DNA of 63,251 bases, the filler included, from Licmophora abbreviata (lineage: Eukaryota), in assembly GCA_900291995.1 (NCBI GenBank). It is 10 parts of 10 records of this genome, joined end to end, with 100 filler letters (N's around TTAATTAATTAA, not from the genome) between each part and the next. Parts side by side here need not be neighbours in the genome. Positions count along the whole stretch, not along the records: positions 20,718 to 38,549 come from OLMU01001405.1; 9 more parts are not named here. One strand, given 5' to 3'. The notes below the pieces were generated by a model, which searched no databases, was not told where the DNA came from, and saw only the letters and a list, made by a program, of their open reading frames with translations. Shown one piece after another: positions 42 through 29,248 of this stretch. Every line of letters begins with the position of its first letter. Position 1 is the first letter of the stretch. The position numbers and the translations under genes were made by a program.

Positions 42-1659
42 ATGTGGACGTCGGTGGTGATCAGGTTCACTGCTTGTTCTGTTTTGGGCCATCTCTATCT
101 TCCCACAGTGCTTGCGAAACATCCACCAAAACCCAAGAAAGTTCGGAAAGCCTGCGAGAAGATTTTTGAGACGGCGTTTCCACCTCAGCAGTGGAGCAAC
201 GCCAAAGACTTGAAGGCGTTCACCAAGTTGATCGCGACCGACCAGCCGAACTACTTTGCTTGTCCCGAGGGGGGCAGCAACAATCTAAAAAACTACTCGG
301 GGAGTGACTTGATGAAATGGTTTCTCACCAACTTCAACCCTGACGATTTCAAGTACACCGAGTACATATGGGGAGATATCATGGTGGCGGGGTCCGTGTG
401 CTCATTCGACAAGCTGTTCTTTGCCGAGATAGGAAATGATTGTCAGATCCAAGCTCAGTCTCGCTTGATCATGGAGATCGATCCGAAACATCACACTCTG
501 GTCAAATGGGTCGACCACGTAGACGCAGATGAACTTAGCGCGAAGTTTGACAAGTGTTTGGCAACTGCTGCTCCCTCTGTTGCCCCAACTGAGTCCCCAA
601 CTCCCAGACCAACACATCACCCTACCGATATGCCGACTGTTAGCCCGTCCAAGGCTCCGACTTTGGCACCTACTTCGCCCCCCACTTCGGCCCCGACTAA
701 GGCTCCGACGTCGGCCCCTACGCCAGAGCCAACTCCTGGCCCATCGGCATCTACTATCGTTCCAACAGACATGAAGACACGAGCACCTTTGCTCGCCACG
801 AAAACAGCAGCTGCCGAGGACGACACACCCATTGCCATTAACAGAGAGACAACCGAGGATCTCATCACTGTGGATACCGTCAGACAGCGCTGCGTGGAGA
901 TCTTTGAGACGGCATTCCCGCCGCAGCAATGGGTCTCGGCCAAAGATCTAAAGGCATTTAGCAACATGTTTGCTGTCGACAAGCACAATTACTTTGCCTG
1001 CCCCGAAGGAGGCCCCTCGGCACTTTCGAACTTCACCAGTGACGAGCTTCTGGAATGGTTTGCAACGAACTTTGATCCGAAAGCTTTCAAGTACGCAGAG
1101 TACATCATAGGCGACGTGTCCGTCGCGGGGAATGTGTGTTCATTCGATAAAGTGTTCTTTGCAGAGATTGGTGACGACTGCCAGTTTTCCGCCAAGTCGC
1201 TTCTATTTATGGAACTAAAGGATGACGGCAAGCTCCTGAAATGGTTCGATCACTTTGACGAAGAAGAAGTGAATGAGAAGTTCTCGACATGCTTGAAGAA
1301 ACAGAAGAAGAAAAAGGGCTCTCGCGTTGAGATGGAGGGCTTGCGGCAATTTGCGGAACAGGCTTACGGAACCTCGCGAGGAGGGTAAGTCTCGATCTCT
1401 TGCGCGACGTGGTGGCAAAGACGAGTTTGACGTTCTCACTCCTGACGCTTTGACCCTTTCTCGCTTGTTGCACTGTAGCAGCCTATTCCAGGCTCAAGTT
1501 CCGACGGGGCTCACTGCCTTCGTCGCCGCCGCTGCCATAGTTTACTTGACGGTGGTCTGGTATCGTAGGAAGCATCCACCGATTCTGATGGTCCCCAGTC
1601 CTCGTTCGCCTCTATCTGACATCACCACGCCAACTATCAACTACGGCTCTGGTTTGTGA
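42..1659 (+). CDS. Type I membrane/secreted protein: signal peptide, two ~140-aa NTF2/SnoaL-like repeats separated by a Pro/Thr-rich (TxAP) linker, C-terminal TM helix; exons 42-1384, 1479-1659
   Basis: GTAAGT donor at 1385 and TGTAG acceptor at 1478 join ORF 42..1388 in phase to the frame of ORF 1327..1659, which carries a TM segment (GLTAFVAAAAIVYLTVVWY) followed by RRK. The internal duplication is obvious (CEKIFETAFPPQQW / CVEIFETAFPPQQW). Confidence 0.8.
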
Positions 1660-20617: not shown

Positions 20618-20717
20618 NNNNNNNNNNNNNNNNNNNNNNNNNNNNNNNNNNNNNNNNNNNNTTAATTAATTAANNNNNNNNNNNNNNNNNNNNNNNNNNN
20701 NNNNNNNNNNNNNNNNN
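20618..20717. other. Assembly gap spacer
   Basis: N44-TTAATTAATTAA-N44. Confidence 0.99.
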
Positions 20718-21340: not shown

Positions 21341-23636
21341 TCACGCCGTGACGGATCCTAGAACATATGTCTTGGAGAACGATTCGATCGCATCCGAGCC
21401 CACCCGATGGCAAAAGTCTCCAAAAGCCTCAAACTGCTGTCGCTGCTCAATAAACATCGCCAGGATGGGTTCCATTGTCTTTTCGAGATCGTCTCGGTTC
21501 ATCTTGGCCATGAAGGGGTACGCAGTTCGAGTCAGAACGGGACTTCCTCCTAGCCACAACTGGTAGCTCTTCGGGCCGTCTCCAACAAAGGCAAGTTCTG
21601 CCATGTAAGGACGGGCACAGCCATTCGGGCATCCTGTCATTCGAATCAGAATTTCTTCGTCGCTCAGATTCATCTTGTCCAACAACGAGCGCATCCTTGC
21701 GAGATAATCAGGCATGAGTCGCTCAGCCTCCGTCTGCGCGAGTCCGCAAAGGGGAAGAGCCGGACATGCCATCGCGAGACGATTCAGCGGATCAACGTCT
21801 TCCAGAGGCTTGAGACCATGCTCCACCAAAATTTTCTCAATGTCCGCCTTGTCCTTGGGATCGATATCACGGAAAATGAGCGACTGAGTGGGACTAAGAA
21901 TCATGCTGAGATTGTACTTGTCCACAAGCACACGGAGGGCAGTCTTGAGGCGAAACTCGCCCTCGTCCTTGACGCGTCCATTATCCACGTGCAATCCGTA
22001 AAACAACTTGCCGTCGCCCTGTTCCCACCATCCCATCCAATCGTTGTACTTCCATTCCTTGATGGGTCGCCAAGGTTGAACCTTCTTTCCGAAGTAGCTT
22101 TCGACGAGAGTACGAAAGTTGTCAATGCCAAGCGTGTGCACCAAATACTTCATACGTGCATTGGCACGGACGTCACGGTTGCCATGATCGCGCTGACTCG
22201 CCAGAATGCTCTTCATGAGTTCAATCATGTCTTCCTTGGGAACGTATCCCAAATGATCAGCCGCTCGGGCAAACGTATTCTCCTTGTTGTGGGTACGACC
22301 AAGACCGCCGCCCACCATAACGTTGAATCCCTCCAGCTCACCCGTCTTCTCGTCTACTACCACGACACATCCGATATCGTTCGTGTAAATATCCAACGAG
22401 TTGTCTCCCGGAACCGTAACTCCAATCTTGAACTTGCGTGGCAAGTAACGGTCTCCATACAGCGGTTCGGTTGCATCGGGCAGAATAATTCCACGTCCGC
22501 TATCATATCGCATCTGTTCATCGATATTATACTGCGCAACTTCCTTACCCCACGTTTCGACGGTCGCTGCCTTTTCTCCATCCAGCCAGAGTTCCGAAAA
22601 GGCCGGTGTCATGGGACGAAACAAGTGCGCAAAGACCTTGCTCCACTCTCGGACATGCTCGTAGTCTCTACTCGCAAAGGGCGCCGGGGTGCTCATGACG
22701 TTCCGACTGACATCACCACATGCACCGACGGTACTACTGCCAATGTTCATAATGCTGCTAATGACAGTCTTGAGATTGCCCTTCAAGATTCCGTGCATTT
22801 GAAAGCACTGACGCGTCGTGGCGCGCAAGTCGCCCTGTCCATGCTTTGCGGATAGATCATCCAGCAATCGGAAGAGTTCAGGAGGGAGTTCACCGGCAGG
22901 CTGCTTGAGACGCAGCATAAACTGATAGTCCTTGGGGCCCTTGGTCTCGCGATTGTTTTGCTGGTAGGAACCGTGGTACTTGAGAATCTGATAGGCATCC
23001 TTGGAGACGTTAATCTCTTCCGTTTGCAGTTGCTGTGGAGTAAGTCGGTGCAGAAGAGGAACGCCTTGTTAGAGACTCTCAAGAAGCTTCCGTAGCGAGC
23101 TATGCGGCCAGCGAACAGAGAGCTAACAATCACAGTCTGACATCCATCCGTTCACAAAATGCTTCCTATTGTTGTTCCATCGATCAGAGTTCACCCCAAA
23201 ATGTATTGTCCACTGGCTTATGGGACGGGGCCTTTCATATCGTCTGCATATATCGATCAGACGGGGAAAGAATAACTTCATCACATCGACGGAAAACTTC
23301 GATTGAATCTTTACGGGTTCGTAGGTGCGTCATGCTGTGTCATTTTGGTAGAAGCAGCGTGCAATACGACGAAAAATGGCGACAGTCGTCCTGCTTCCTC
23401 TGGAGCACAGTTTCACACTACAAGACGCCCTACCTTCTCTCGACAAGACTCACCTCCTTTAAGGGATGCACGAGATGATCGGAATCAACCTTGAGCTGTT
23501 CAATTTTGGCTAGTTTCTTTTGCTTGGGCATCTCGAGGACCATGTGGAGCGATGTGGACGAACGCCTCGCCGATGGAGCCACAAAGGCACTCGCCGATGC
23601 CATCAGACAGAGCAAAGCAAGAGTTGAGAACTTCAT
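21341..23636 (-). CDS. sir: Plastid ferredoxin-dependent sulfite reductase; exons 23636-23454, 23032-21341
   Basis: ASA-FVAP presequence; LKYHGSYQQ, YLPRKFKI, siroheme/4Fe-4S ligands MACPALPLC and RMTGCPNGCARPY. Confidence 0.95.
23179..23290 (-). ncRNA. Intronic box C/D snoRNA (SNORD12/snR190-like LSU rRNA guide)
   Basis: Box C GTGATGA (23284-23278), D' CTGA (23260-23257), D CTGA (23187-23184), terminal stem GTCGA/TCGAT. The 11-nt guide TTCTTTCCCCG is complementary to the conserved LSU rRNA sequence CGGGGAAAGAA. Confidence 0.75.
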
Positions 23637-24039
23637 GGTTGCGGACAGAACACAGTTTAGCAATGGAATTGTTGGCTCTGTTCACAACGAAACGAAGAAG
23701 GTGCAATGAGTGTGCGTTCGCGCAGGGATTTCGATTGGGAGGTGTGAAGAAGTTCAAAGTTGAATGAATCGACGGCCAGAGATGGTTGGGTTATGAGTAC
23801 GATATTACAACCTCCGGGTGCATGATTTCAGCCGCGAATCTTTGGGTTCTACATACGACAAGATTGTGTAGATTTGTACTGTCGTTGAATGTGGTACAGA
23901 GTCTACAGGTGTCATCAAATAGAAATCTGGCAACTCACAAAGTGAGAAACAGAAGCGAAGCGTTGTGTTGTTGTGATCGTATGTCTTGACTTTGCGTCGG
24001 TTTCTCTCTTGCTTCCACTCTTTTTATCCTGTCATCATC

Positions 24040-26233
24040 ATGAAGACTGCCATCGCCGCTTTCCTGACCACGCTCGTGGTCCCTTCCGCAGCTTTTGCGC
24101 CTCCGACGCGTCTCGTGACAAACAGGAGGATCGAGGCTATTTCTTCTGTAGAACTGAGCATGGCTCTCGACATGCCTCCGCCGCCTGCTACTTCAAATGT
24201 TCCCGAAGTTCAGCAGGCCTCCCCTGGTGGCCCTCCGTCGGACGTTCGCTACTCGGATTTCGTGAAACTTGTCAACGCCGATCGAGTCGAAAAAGTGACA
24301 TTCAGTTCTGACGGCACTCGTTTGCTAGGCGTCGACGTTGACGGCATTCGAATGCAGATCGAGTCACTTCCCAACGATCCGGATCTACTCACTCAGCTCA
24401 CGACCCACAAGGTCGATGTGACAGTACTTCCACAACAAGAGACCGGTGAGATTGGATCGCTGCTGCAGTCGCTCTTGCTCCCTGCGGCCCTCTTCGCCGG
24501 ATTGTTCTTTCTGAGTCGTAGGGCGGGCGGAGGCATGGGTATGGGACCGGGGAATCCCATGGGATTTGCGAAATCCAAAGCGGAGTAAGTTTGACTGAGA
24601 GTCGAGGGAGTCAGGAGGAAGTGCACGCTTTGGTGAAATGTTCTCTTATTCCTCTCATCACTATCATTGTCACCGTTTCTTCTCACCTTCCCATCACACT
24701 CGTCATAGAATCCAAATGATCCCCGATACTGGCGTCACATTCGAGGATGTTGCAGGCTGCGATGGTGCCAAGTTGGAACTTGCCGAGGTCGTTGACTTTC
24801 TTAAACAGCCAGAAGCCTACACCAAGAATGGCTGTCAGATTCCAAGAGGCGTCATATTGGATGGGCCGCCTGGGACGGGCAAAACCCTGCTGGCCAAAGC
24901 CGTGGCAGGAGAAGCCGGTGTCCCGTTCATTAGCATCAGTGGAAGCGAGTTTGTGGAAATGTTCGTTGGAGTCGGTGCTGCACGAGTCCGTGATATCTTT
25001 TCGCAAGCGAAAAAGAACGCGCCTTGTATCATCTTTATTGATGAGATTGACGCAGTCGGAAGGCAGCGTGGTGCAGGGTATGCAGGTGGCAATGATGAGC
25101 GAGAACAGACTGTGAATCAAATCTTGGTGGAACTGGATGGATTTGACGGCAATCCTGGAATTATTACCATTGCTGCTACCAACCGTGTCGACATTTTGGA
25201 TCAAGCCCTACTTCGTCCTGGGCGGTTTGACCGCAAGGTTACGGTGGACCTTCCAGACTTTCGGGGTCGGACCCGCATCCTTGGTGTGCACTCTCGTGGC
25301 AAGCCTCTCGAGCCTGACGTGGACCTCGAGGCCATCTCGCGTCGTACTCCAGGATTTTCCGGTGCTCAGCTCGAGAACCTCATGAATGAAGCTGCAATCT
25401 CAGCCGCTCGTCTGGGCAAGGGTACGATCGGCTGGGAACAGATCGACGGGGCCGTCGACAGAGTCATGGTCGGGCTCGAAAAGAAGGGAGGAAACCAGGT
25501 TGCCAAGCAAAAGGAACTCGTTGCGTACCACGAAGCCGGACACGCCATCGTTGGAGCGCTGGTTCCAGACTACGATCAAGTGCAAAAGATTTCAATCATT
25601 CCCCGTTCCAACGGTGCCGGCGGCCTGACATTCTTTGCTCCTCAAGAGTCTCGTTTGGAGTCCGGCATGTACAGTCGGCATTACCTCGAATCTCAATTGG
25701 CAGTAGCGCTCGGAGGACGCCTTGCGGAAGAAATCATCTATGGTGAAGACATGGTAACGACGGGTGCCTCGAACGACATTCAACAGGTCGCCAACATTGC
25801 CAAACGTATGGTAAAAGAATGGGGCATGAGCGACAAAGTCGGTCGCGTGGCCGTGTCGGAACCGCAGTCGCCTTCCTTCATGGGCCGCATGATGCTTCGT
25901 CGACCCACACAATGGGGCAACAAACTGCTAGGTGACGTGGAAGACGAAGTGGAACGCCTCGTGAACAATAGCTACATTCTCGCCAAGAAAATTCTCAACG
26001 CGAACCGAGACTTGCTAGAGCACTTGAAGACTGTGTTAATGGATCAGGAAATTGTGTCCGCCGAGGAATTTCAGATGATGTTGGTGCAGTTCCAGTCCAA
26101 GACGTCTGGATATGCGGTTCACGGTGACGAGCGAAACCGCGAGGCGTTGCCGTTTCAGTCCCTGCCGGACATGGGCGTCCCGCACAAGGAGTTAGAAGAA
26201 AAAGAAGAAAAGGAGGAAACCGGCGTTGCGTAA
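24040..26233 (+). CDS. ftsH: Plastid ATP-dependent zinc metalloprotease FtsH; exons 24040-24584, 24709-26233
   Basis: SAA-FAP presequence, Walker A GPPGTGKT, Walker [26 protein letters not shown] zinc motif. Confidence 0.96.
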
Positions 26234-26400: not shown

Positions 26401-26568
26401 AAAAGAACAGAGTGGAGTCGCCGCTGACATTTTCGACCTATTCTTTCAAGAACTCCTTCCACATTCGTCATATTCGTAGTAGATCGTTCTCGAGCTATCA
26501 ACCATGATGCTTCTGCCGTCTATTCAGCGTTTGTTTTGACGCCTAAACCCTCCAGCAGCTAAGCGAAC

Positions 26569-29248
26569 ATGAGAGGTCGTCACATTTTGATGCTGCTATG
26601 CAGTGTCATCACCTCAAGCAGAACCACACTTGGTTTTCAGCTGTCAACAACAACAACAACAACAACAAAGATTCGAAAACGGTATCTTCTTTCGAATGAT
26701 TCTCTGTCGCCCTTGTTCATGTCGAACAAGAAGAGAGGAGGATACGAAGCTACGGAAGGTTATTCTCGCTCCCTCAATCGAGACAATTTCATCCGTCGCT
26801 TGTTTGGAGTACGCCGCAACGATCCGGGACGAGCGCACTTGCAGCAGACCAACAACTTGATGGGAGGCGATAGTAGGAAGGCCGTTTCGACGCGTCGCGC
26901 CAAACATCCAGGGACACTGATTCTCGTACGCAATGGATCCAGTGATGAGTGTGATGACTTTACGGGGTGGAAGGATCCGGATATTGGCCAACGAGGACAG
27001 CGGGAAATGGAGCATGCGGCGCGACTGATTCGAGAATCAGGATATGACCTGGATGTGGTCTTTAGCAGTCGCCTCAAGAGGTGTATTCATTCGGCGTGGA
27101 GTATTCTTAGAGAAATGGATGAACTCTATTTGCCCATCTTTAAGGCATGGAGATTGAATGGACGAAACTATGGGGCGCTCGAGGGGCTGAGCAAGGCGGA
27201 GGTCGCAAAGCAAAAGGGAGAAGCGCTGGTTCAGAAATGGCGCCTCGACCTGGATGCCGTCCCTCCTCCCGTATCCAAGACTGACGCCAACTGGCACGGC
27301 AAAGACCCCAGATATGCTGACTTGGGGGACGAGTGTCCGCAATCGGAGTCGCTTTCGGGATGCATGGCAAGGACGAGCCGTCTTTGGGAGAACCGCATCA
27401 AGCGGGAGTTGGAGATTGGACACAACGTTCTGGTCGTAGGGCACGGAGCGTCACTTCGTGGGCTGATCAAACATATCCAGGGTACGTTTGTTCTGTGGTG
27501 GTATGAAGAGAAGAAAAGTGTCGATCGGTATCTGCCGCTCTGACTTGCGCATCGCATCCTATCGCAGGCCTCAGCGACCAGGACGCTGCCGCCATCAAGA
27601 TTCCCCCAGGAAGTCCCATTATTTACGAATTTGACAAAACGTTGCAGCCCGTGCAACCCACGAAGAAGGAGGAGAATAGAAATGGCGTCTTGAAAGCATC
27701 GTTTTTGGAAAAACCTGGAGCGTTGCAGGAGGCGCTGAAGAAGGAAGACGAATGGCGCAAGCAGGTGCCGGGATACGATTACACAATGGACCGCTCGAAT
27801 CGTGCCATGACTTCGTTGGAGCGCTCGCTTACAAAACTCCAAGCGGAGCGAGAATTGAGAGAGTATGCAGACGACGTCTCGCATTTGCAGCCTGCTGTAT
27901 CCATTGTGTCTCATCGGGTCGCCGAGGATTCCATCAATGGTGATCCGACACAGCGACTTGCAACGCAGGCGGACCTCAGTGTACCCTTGGTGGCACAACA
28001 CCCGTGTCTTGCGCCTCTCCCAGAAGGCGTCGAGCTACCTGCCGATTTACAGCTCCCTGGTCGCAAAGCATCGACGATTGTAATGATTCGCCACGGCAAG
28101 ACGGAACACAACAAGCTGGGACTCTTCACGGGATGGTACGCGACCAACGTCCAACATTGTTCGTTTCTTATGCTCACGTCTCACACTCTAAACTATTGTT
28201 GTCGGAACAGGGAGGATCCACCTCTTGCCGTCGAAGGCCTAGAAGAAGCGAAAGTAGCAGGCAAGCTGCTCAAGAGGAACGGATTCGACTTTGACGTAGT
28301 CTATACTAGTTGGCTATGTCGTGCCATCGAGACAGCCTTTCTTGTCTTGGACGGCCTGGATCGCACGTGGCTTCCGGTCATCAAGACGTGGCGCCTCAAC
28401 GAGCGCATGTATGGCGATCTGACCGGTCGCTCAAAAAAGATGATTGCTCGCATGTTCAGCGAGAAACAGTTCTACAGCTGGCGTCGAGGCTTTAAGGTGC
28501 GACCACCACCCGTCTCTTCTTTCTCGACATCGTATCCTGGAAACGACCGACGCTACAAAAAGTTCCTTACGGACGTACGCTACTCTTTCAGCGAGTCAAT
28601 TATCCGTAGTATTGAACGACGCCGACCTGTCCTTATTCGCAAGTTCCCCAAGACGGAATGTCTCAAAGACTGCAACGACAGAACAATCCCCTATCTGATT
28701 CACAATATCATGCCCGAAGTCGCAAAAGGAAAGCGTGTCCTGATTGCGAGTAGCGAGAATGCTATTCGTGGCCTCTTGATGCACCTCTGCGACATCCCCG
28801 AATCGAAGATTGCAGGCCTCAACATCCCAAACGGCATTCCCATTATTTACGACGTTGCCTCGAGGACAGTCAAGCTGGTCGACGAGGGCGACGGAAGGAA
28901 TCCTCTCGAAAAGTATGATTTTGGGGAGGCAGCCGAGTTTCTGTTTGCCAAGGCAGGCGAAGCCGTGCAAGTGGAAGATGAGGTAAGGCGTTCGAGTGTG
29001 TGCATATATTCGAGTGTCGAGCGCAAAATATATTCACGCTTCCTATGCATTTTGCTTTGGTATCGTTCCAGCTCTGTGACATTGACGGCCTGAGCGATAC
29101 GGCATGGGCGACACTTCATAGTGTCTATGCCATGACACCACTGTCAATTCCCATTCAAGGCGAGCTCGATCCCAGCATGCTGCCCGCGCCACCTGCTCCA
29201 AACCCAAACGCAAGAAAGAAGGAAACAGTACTATTTTCCAGGAAGTAG
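26569..29248 (+). CDS. Plastid-targeted protein with two tandem 2,3-BPG-dependent phosphoglycerate mutase domains; exons 26569-27481, 27568-28135, 28211-28982, 29072-29248
   Basis: Domain 1 has LVRNG, FTGWKDP, WRLNGRNYGAL, GHGASLRG. Domain 2 has IRHGKT, FTGWEDP, WRLNERMYGDL, SSENAIRG. Three in-phase introns; TLG-F presequence. Confidence 0.88.

Follow-up and report, generated by a model that had tools for sequence, protein, structure and literature searches.

The locus considered here raises the question of whether an intron of a diatom gene for plastid sulfite reductase conceals a genuine box C/D small nucleolar RNA (snoRNA), which rRNA site such an RNA would guide, and whether its placement in a sulfur-assimilation gene carries any meaning. 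The stretch of DNA analysed (the window) comprises 63,251 nucleotides from Licmophora abbreviata; its nine joins between contigs (e.g. 20618-20717) consist of two 44-N runs around 12 letters each. Our preferred reading, to which we assign a probability of roughly 0.88, is that the element at 23179-23290 on the minus strand represents, in diatoms, the orthologue of the box C/D snoRNA known as SNORD12, snR190 or snR107, with a D′ guide that would probably direct methylation of the equivalent of yeast G2395, and with an incidental host.

The host is a two-exon gene on the minus strand encoding a plastid-type, ferredoxin-type sulfite reductase (sir), the closest named homologues of which are diatom proteins (82-84% identity). 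Exon 1 (23454-23636, minus strand) spans 61 codons ending in HPLKE and encodes an N-terminal targeting-type peptide, the targeting role of which is suggested by the N-terminus itself; exon 2 (21341-23032, minus strand) encodes the ferredoxin-type sulfite reductase, with domains PF01077 and PF03460. The two are separated by a GT..AG intron of phase 0 (23033-23453, minus strand), the position of which is common to five loci on metagenome contigs (L010, L011, L014, L015 and L021). The pair 23453-23033 scored highest among the donor/acceptor pairs tried against the window's own spliced protein, and the boundaries are supported by homologues with an identical splice position. The intron length of 421 nt given in a preliminary description of this DNA was confirmed; the accompanying statement that this intron is far longer than the others could be set against one neighbor only, the 124-nt intron of ftsH (24585-24708, read by eye). 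The sir gene and this plastid-type ftsH stand head to head in the window (23636-24020), as they do in L021, and a single gene region at 26563-29093 encodes two tandem histidine-phosphatase (phosphoglycerate-mutase-like) domains. In an RNA run (share 0.14), three contigs fell on the window and none over the snoRNA; one of them, 229 nt long, lay over exon 1 and 31 nt of the intron, a result that speaks neither for nor against expression of the snoRNA.

Read on the minus strand, the element measures 100 nt when counted from box C through box D (23283-23184), its mature ends being putative, and boxes C, D′ and D as well as the letters of the guide stand exactly where they had been placed before. 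Box C (GTGATGA, 23278-23284) provides the RUGAUGA motif expected near the 5′ end of this class of RNAs. The D′ guide (23261-23272), equivalent to ASE1 of snR107 and box A of snR190, reads TTCTTTCCCCG from 23272 to 23262, followed by T; it is of class length (10-21 nt) and lies directly upstream of box D′ (CTGA, 23257-23260), no such guide being conserved at box D. The D′-C′ linker (23249-23256) starts with TCGA, a k-loop motif common to the SNORD12 and snR107 consensus sequences, and leads to a box C′ (TGCAGA, 23243-23248) that the preliminary description lacked. An internal D′/C′ pair is thus present; the 12 distinct sequences described below all carry a C′-like hexamer (TGACGA, TGCCGA and TGTAGA among the relatives), and all carry GAAAG (23232-23236), which can pair with CTTTC within the guide. 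Folding of the single sequence then yields an internal stem-loop, made of a 5′ arm (GCCCC-GTCC, 23223-23231), a second antisense element CCATAAGCCAGT (23212-23223) that forms most of the hairpin loop, and a 3′ arm (GGAC, a 10-nt bulge and GGGGT, 23193-23211). Box D (CTGA, 23184-23187), near the 3′ end, is preceded by GGGGTGAAC-T. The RNA is closed by a terminal stem of 9 bp, rather than the 5 first described, in which 23286-23294 (5′ arm) pairs with 23175-23183 (3′ arm). The fold has a z-score of -2.29, equally stable folds being found in 6 of 200 shuffles. A search for box C, guide and D′ together gave a single match in the window and none in 100 shuffles, a weak control since the pattern was drawn from the element itself. 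Automatic folding of the alignment misaligned the hairpin and missed its upper stem, which was obtained by folding the sequences singly.

A comparison with Rfam, which the preliminary description had suggested as a check, came out mixed. No match in the window reached a gathering cut-off; in E-value mode, C/D snoRNA models did fall on the element, accounting, on the same strand, for the top three of the four matches in 22900-23600. These were snR107 (RF04328; 19.3 bits against a cut-off of 44, E 0.6), sn1185 (RF01157; 17.8 bits) and SNORD12 (RF00581; 17.3 bits against a cut-off of 43, E 1.7), and the element is filed under neither the snR107 nor the SNORD12 accession. Scores below cut-off prove nothing by themselves; what the alignments consist of is the guide, D′ and the AUCGA that follows it. 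Relatives from metagenomes likewise remained below cut-off on the Rfam models, with 26.6 bits at best.

These relatives were collected by scanning metagenome contigs with a pattern made of box C, the guide, D′ and GATCGA. All 17 loci returned are relatives of the window's RNA, and 16 carry the whole anatomy (C′, GAAAG, the stem-loop with the GCCAG loop, and box D); together with the window they amount to 12 distinct sequences of 94-100 nt. The invariance of box C, guide, D′ and GATCGA among the relatives follows from their being fixed by the scan pattern, and the TCGA between D′ and C′ is fixed in the same manner in the relatives, though not in the window, where it is also present. A second conserved element with a GCCAG core occurs between C′ and D in 12/12 distinct sequences. 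Across the 11 distinct relatives, identity to the window was 0.80-0.90 inside the RNA and 0.47-0.66 in the flanks, compared to 0.60 for a shuffled flank; about one quarter of the letters of the RNA are set by the scan pattern, which inflates the former figure and would hide relatives with an altered guide. The snoRNA is likewise conserved in the orthologous sir introns, at the same intron position. The seventeenth locus (L020:1-100, minus strand) is a divergent member cut by the end of its contig, scoring 22.6 bits and harboring the GCCAG loop on another stem; it lies in an apparent intron, the upstream exon of which gave no Pfam match in the three frames tried and, to our eye, presumably resembles an EXS/XPR1 protein. 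A relaxed pattern applied to viral contigs returned 18 matches, none of which combined box C with GCCAG; these were discarded as chance matches, three of the 18 scoring 14-15 bits on a purpose-built model as against 81-105 bits for whole copies. In the own genome of L. abbreviata, the relaxed signature pattern matched once, and it is on this pattern match that the single copy rests; a hairpin-only pattern was uninformative, with 6 matches versus 7 for its reversed control.

If nothing but the missing Rfam match at cut-off were considered, the motifs might be taken for a chance cluster, or for a cis-element acting on the splicing of sir. Neither would leave a whole anatomy conserved between flanks that are at shuffle level, nor place it in several unrelated hosts, and we regard this explanation as largely refuted already and its probability as negligible. 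The qualification of the snoRNA as functional, made in the preliminary description, rests on this conservation. Judging from its sequence, the element is a real and conserved box C/D snoRNA that would work like snR107 and SNORD12 and is very probably orthologous to them.

The target predicted for the D′ guide was present in the organism's own eukaryotic large-subunit (LSU) rRNA (L001, 3167.9 bits), a sequence that was also used in place of each relative's own rRNA. It contains the stretch GCGGGGAAAGAA, with which the guide pairs over 12 bp including one G-U, and which the Rfam model identifies as the 5′ strand of the helix closing domain V (helix 73). C2392 and G2395 lie within the snR190 box A site according to Jaafar et al. 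(PMC8536666, seen in part), so that the base at D′+5 faces the equivalent of G2395. The duplex with the own LSU and the box A placement therefore agree that D′+5 selects the third G of GGGG, as first proposed. When the guide segment was shuffled 150 times, 4 of the shuffles equalled its best duplex in LSU and small-subunit (SSU) rRNA. Two other large-subunit rRNA loci of the assembly (L002 and L003, ~1200 bits on the eukaryotic model) are organellar or bacterial, and are devoid of the guide target.

Provided that the snoRNA is real, fibrillarin would probably 2′-O-methylate this G, by analogy with its equivalents. G2483 of S. pombe is methylated by snR107 (bioRxiv 10.1101/2024.10.03.615557), and the equivalent G is methylated in human and plants (Gm3899 and Gm2396; PMC11542601, Table 2), that of Arabidopsis being listed, in the part of this source consulted, without a known guide. 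In S. cerevisiae, on the other hand, the G is unmethylated and snR190 does not methylate it (PMC8536666), a point absent from the preliminary description. The same RNA could thus act purely as a folding chaperone after the manner of yeast snR190, pairing with helix 73 and elsewhere in the rRNA at a second site, without methylating anything. The box C′ of the diatom RNA is off consensus, the GAAAG found in 12/12 distinct sequences can sequester part of the guide, and the stem-loop between C′ and D, albeit far shorter, is reminiscent of the stem-loop through which snR190 binds the Npa1 complex (PMC11879421, partial text). A similar guide-sequestering stem did not explain the non-methylation by snR190 (PMC8536666, same portion). 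Against a pure chaperone, D′ is a canonical CTGA in 11 of the 12 distinct sequences, C′ is uninterrupted and 8-9 nt from D′, and the equivalents in S. pombe, human and plants are methylated. We thus consider a chaperone devoid of methylation activity rather unlikely, and retain the methylating orthologue as our reading of the D′ half of the RNA.

The preliminary description had also tentatively assigned a second guide, GGGTGAAC, upstream of box D, an assignment that we abandon. This segment is one arm of the internal stem, is kept in 4/12 distinct sequences only, and forms a duplex of chance level with rRNA. At the proposed site the duplex has -14.9 kcal/mol, whereas the four remaining variants reach no more than -6.6 to -9.8 kcal/mol; the best targets vary between sequences, and 53 of 150 shuffles reach an equal duplex in LSU and SSU. 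The GGG of the segment pairs instead with the CCC that follows GAAAG, in a stem that all 12 distinct sequences can form (-8.8 to -13.6 kcal/mol) and in which pairing-preserving changes are found (GACCC/GGGTC in L014, ACCCT/AGGGT in L024).

The loop of this hairpin carries GCCAGT, the second antisense motif of the family, which is homologous to snR107 ASE2 and the core of snR190 box B and had been overlooked in the preliminary description. Published accounts, as far as the portions available go, place its target in either of two regions. The ASE2 of snR107, which contains GCCAGU, is drawn against 25S positions 333-343 (PMC11971394, supplement) and box B of snR190 is assigned to domain I by Jaafar et al. 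(PMC8536666), while van Nues et al. (PMC3116282) assigned the snR190 motif to L2376-83, beside the methylation-guide target. The LSU of L. abbreviata has TATTGGTGG at the domain I site and CTTGGAAG at the site adjacent to helix 73; both are changed. When duplexes were ranked over LSU and SSU, the second element gave -10.2 and -10.1 kcal/mol at these sites (ranks 22 and 23), the former with 7 contiguous bp, and the long (11-15 nt) domain I complement was not found in the own rRNA. The element instead found its first-ranked partner in the peptidyl-transferase-centre (PTC) strand, with 12 bp including one G-U and -21.1 kcal/mol, a value reached anywhere in LSU and SSU by 6 of 150 shuffles. This strand, AACUGGCUUGUGG, runs from the central loop into helix 89, and we take it to correspond to yeast ~A2820-G2831 and to the A2451 region of E. 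coli. In the rDNA contig of 7663 nt, ACTGGC, the exact complement, is present a single time, within the PTC strand, one occurrence being as expected; the chance of six further pairs with at most one G-U beyond this hexamer is ~0.002 by simple counting, or ~0.02 when the two C's belonging to the stem are discounted. When 8 distinct loop sequences were compared, the PTC site came first for 5 of them and second, third and eleventh for the other three; once 5.8S was added, a 5.8S site outranked it for one.

Conservation of the rRNA and of the motif bears on the same point. In the pan-eukaryote LSU consensus of Rfam, the PTC site is almost all upper-case, the other two sites being partly lower-case, i.e. 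variable. GCCAGT is found in 42 of the 43 fungal alignment rows examined (the alignment may continue beyond them), and 34 of the 43, by hand count, read T(A/G)C-TT-GCCAGT, a sequence that would pair with the PTC strand on both sides of a U-U tandem. Two Kluyveromyces rows carry TAAGCCAGT, as most diatoms do, and a switch between AA and UU opposite the UU of the rRNA is common to the diatoms and these two rows. A tentative proposal, derived from sequence complementarity, is that GCCAGU, which is nearly invariant in the SNORD12/snR190/snR107 family, pairs with the PTC strand, and that a single snoRNP may hold domain V's root helix through its guide and, through its loop, the catalytic-centre strand in the early folding of the 60S subunit. 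Diatoms would expose this pairing in that the match at the domain I site and at the one adjacent to helix 73 has been lost, whereas the motif has stayed.

No less probable, to our mind, is that the second element pairs with one of its published targets, be it the strand of domain I which pairs with 5.8S at a later stage or the stretch immediately upstream of helix 73, the match to the PTC being a coincidence; we place the two readings level, the remaining probability going to a role in protein binding. Both sites are published assignments; most fungal rows go on as GCCAGTA, the last A of which pairs in the snR107 domain I duplex and would face an A at the PTC; the stem has to open before an 11-nt loop can accommodate a 12-bp duplex; and for the loop of L009/L023 the PTC site comes only eleventh. 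Most of the changes tolerated by the PTC pairing are, furthermore, transitions, which are favored by mutation anyway, in sequences that are related. What speaks against the published targets is their weak pairing in the own LSU compared to the PTC strand, and their partial variability in the Rfam consensus while the motif is nearly invariant. The texts of PMC8536666, PMC8536713, PMC11879421 and PMC13015370, within the portions covered (main text, as opposed to figures and bioRxiv supplements), contain no statement on a PTC pairing, and the titles returned by literature searches pointed to none. The yeast CLASH supplements place snR190 at 25S-2395 with 4173 overlapping hybrids and hold, as far as they were available, no table of other rRNA sites; the human hybrid table, which covers methylation-type pairings and a short list, has 8 SNORD12 rows with 0 at the PTC (PMC6171561, PMC12645875). 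Published mutants of snR190 box B and snR107 ASE2 cannot tell the target since they remove the element. If true, the PTC pairing would change the accepted target of both elements.

The hosts of the relatives speak to the third part of our question. Six of the 17 metagenome loci lie in sir, and in the five distinct ones that include exon 1 the RNA occupies the same phase-0 intron, which is 183-1599 nt long; the SiR proteins of these five relatives are 73-83% identical to that of the window over the matched part of exon 2. A quick tree with a weak backbone, built from 32 rows (27 of 120 homologues and 5 locus proteins; the 67-residue L014 was left unplaced), spread the RNA-bearing SiRs among diatoms, outside the Thalassiosirales clade. 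Seven other loci lie in introns of three unrelated genes, namely a phosphate-binding-protein (PBP)-domain gene (285-nt intron, 3 loci), a STE24 protease gene whose closest named relatives are from Thalassiosirales (323-nt intron splitting HEL|GH, 3 loci) and a kinase gene (1 locus). The last 4 loci have no identified coding host, and two of them share additional C/D-like RNAs. RNAs that are nearly identical (92-97%, blastn) are thus found in unrelated hosts.

The preliminary description had surmised that hosting in sir ties an rRNA modification to sulfur status. In favor of such a coupling, the window and 5 other distinct sequences have the sir intron at the same position, the RNA has been amplified within one sir intron to give 7 copies, whole or partial, and methylation consumes SAM, a sulfur metabolite. 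Any intron bearing the RNA would, however, be expected to keep its position, and a sulfur tie is left unsupported by the 11 of 17 loci that show no sir host, some of them in apparently non-coding clusters, and by the near-identity of RNAs in unrelated genes. We therefore deem the coupling most improbable; on the simplest reading, sir is one old landing site, retained because the intron carries the RNA, and the identity of the host is without regulatory meaning.

Additional snoRNA-like sequences were seen at several of these loci. Upstream of the SNORD12-like RNA, L009 (2445-2526, minus strand) and L016 have in common a conserved motif of 40 nt and a further C/D-like RNA (Rfam snoR38, E 0.39); no coding host was found in this region, which is probably a non-coding snoRNA cluster, and L016 contains two copies of the SNORD12-like RNA. 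L010 (193-1352, minus strand) and L019 harbor a tandem snoRNA array in a 1.6-kb sir intron, with 7 model matches, namely 4 near-whole copies (87-100 bits) and 3 decayed ones, and box C reads TGAGGA in two copies. L014 carries, upstream of sir exon 1 (1076-1164, minus strand), a SNORD53/SNORD92-like C/D RNA (37.6 bits, E 2.8e-4), with a D′ guide complementary to the part of LSU that lies immediately 5′ of the target in helix 73; a pattern search of the own genome found no counterpart. The own genome does contain a U14-like RNA on another contig (L051; C266:1799-1891, minus strand; 39.6 bits, below the cut-off of 64), in a 210-nt intron of a gene with WD40 and Utp12 domains that we take to be PWP2/UTP1-like. 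The latter is a conventional ribosome-biogenesis host for a snoRNA, which suggests that sir may well be an unusual one for this genome; this rests on a single comparison, the U14-like RNA being the only other snoRNA located (patterns for other C/D guides gave 0 matches in the own genome, and the U14 family search alone yielded a locus).

What we observe is the anatomy of the RNA, its complementarity to the organism's rRNA, its conservation, the position of its intron and its changes of host; expression, snoRNP assembly, methylation and chaperone contact are inferred from them and may be pictured as follows. As is known for the class, the snoRNA would be transcribed within the sir pre-mRNA, released by splicing and trimmed by exonucleases up to its terminal stem, and the four C/D core proteins would bind at C/D and C′/D′. 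The D′ guide, possibly shielded by GAAAG until it meets the rRNA, would open helix 73 and pair with its 5′ strand, leading to methylation of the G2395 equivalent. Box D would be without a guide of its own, the stretch from C′ to D serving as a stem-loop that presents GCCAGT for a second, non-methylating contact with pre-60S rRNA. The host gene would supply only transcription and an intron.

In the literature searched, including the accessible part of a paper on Phaeodactylum small RNAs (PMC4247016) and with papers rather than genome annotations as its scope, no diatom member of the SNORD12/snR190/snR107 lineage is described. A lineage studied in fungi and vertebrates may now be extended to stramenopiles, where Rfam misses it, and the diatom sequences provide a seed for a better covariance model, which would be immediately useful given that Arabidopsis Gm2396 is without a known guide. 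They also depict a snoRNA that several diatoms retain in the same intron of a metabolic gene, and that in others has moved between unrelated hosts.

Among known systems, to the extent that the sources describe them in the parts consulted, S. pombe snR107 (RF04328; bioRxiv 10.1101/2024.10.03.615557 = PMC11971394) is like the diatom RNA in being intronic and ~100-107 nt long, with a D′ guide to the G2483 equivalent, TCGA after D′, a TGACGA-type C′, a GCCAGU second element and a small stem-loop after C′. It differs in that its host is a lncRNA linked to U14, whereas the diatom host is a protein-coding metabolic gene; the fungal linkage directly upstream of U14 was not found here, the best U14-like match being on C266 and the window's element on C1405. 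The domain I pairing (333-343) drawn for its ASE2 is weak in the diatom, and we found no evidence in the diatom RNA for an Mmi1/Mei2-type role such as that of snR107. S. cerevisiae snR190 (PMC8536666, PMC11879421, PMC3116282; each in part) shares a box A directed to helix 73 and G2395, a guide-sequestering internal stem, the GCCAGT motif and a stem-loop between C′ and D. Unlike the diatom RNA, it is much longer, dicistronic with U14, non-methylating and endowed with a 15-nt box B to domain I; the diatom RNA, for its part, lacks a long domain I complement and carries the motif in the loop of a stem-loop of ~40 nt. The Rfam RNA sn1185 (RF01157) has a near-identical guide and CUGA over 24 nt and the same target region, in another architecture, the guide being located beside the terminal D box (model positions 40-63 of 66). 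Vertebrate SNORD12/12B/12C (HBII-99; RF00581), in the descriptions available to us, are intronic like the diatom RNA, conserve GAUCGA after the guide and target, by means of the D′ guide, the corresponding G (G3878, numbered Gm3899 elsewhere), and differ from it in their host, the lncRNA ZFAS1, and in a model that has no matching internal stem-loop.
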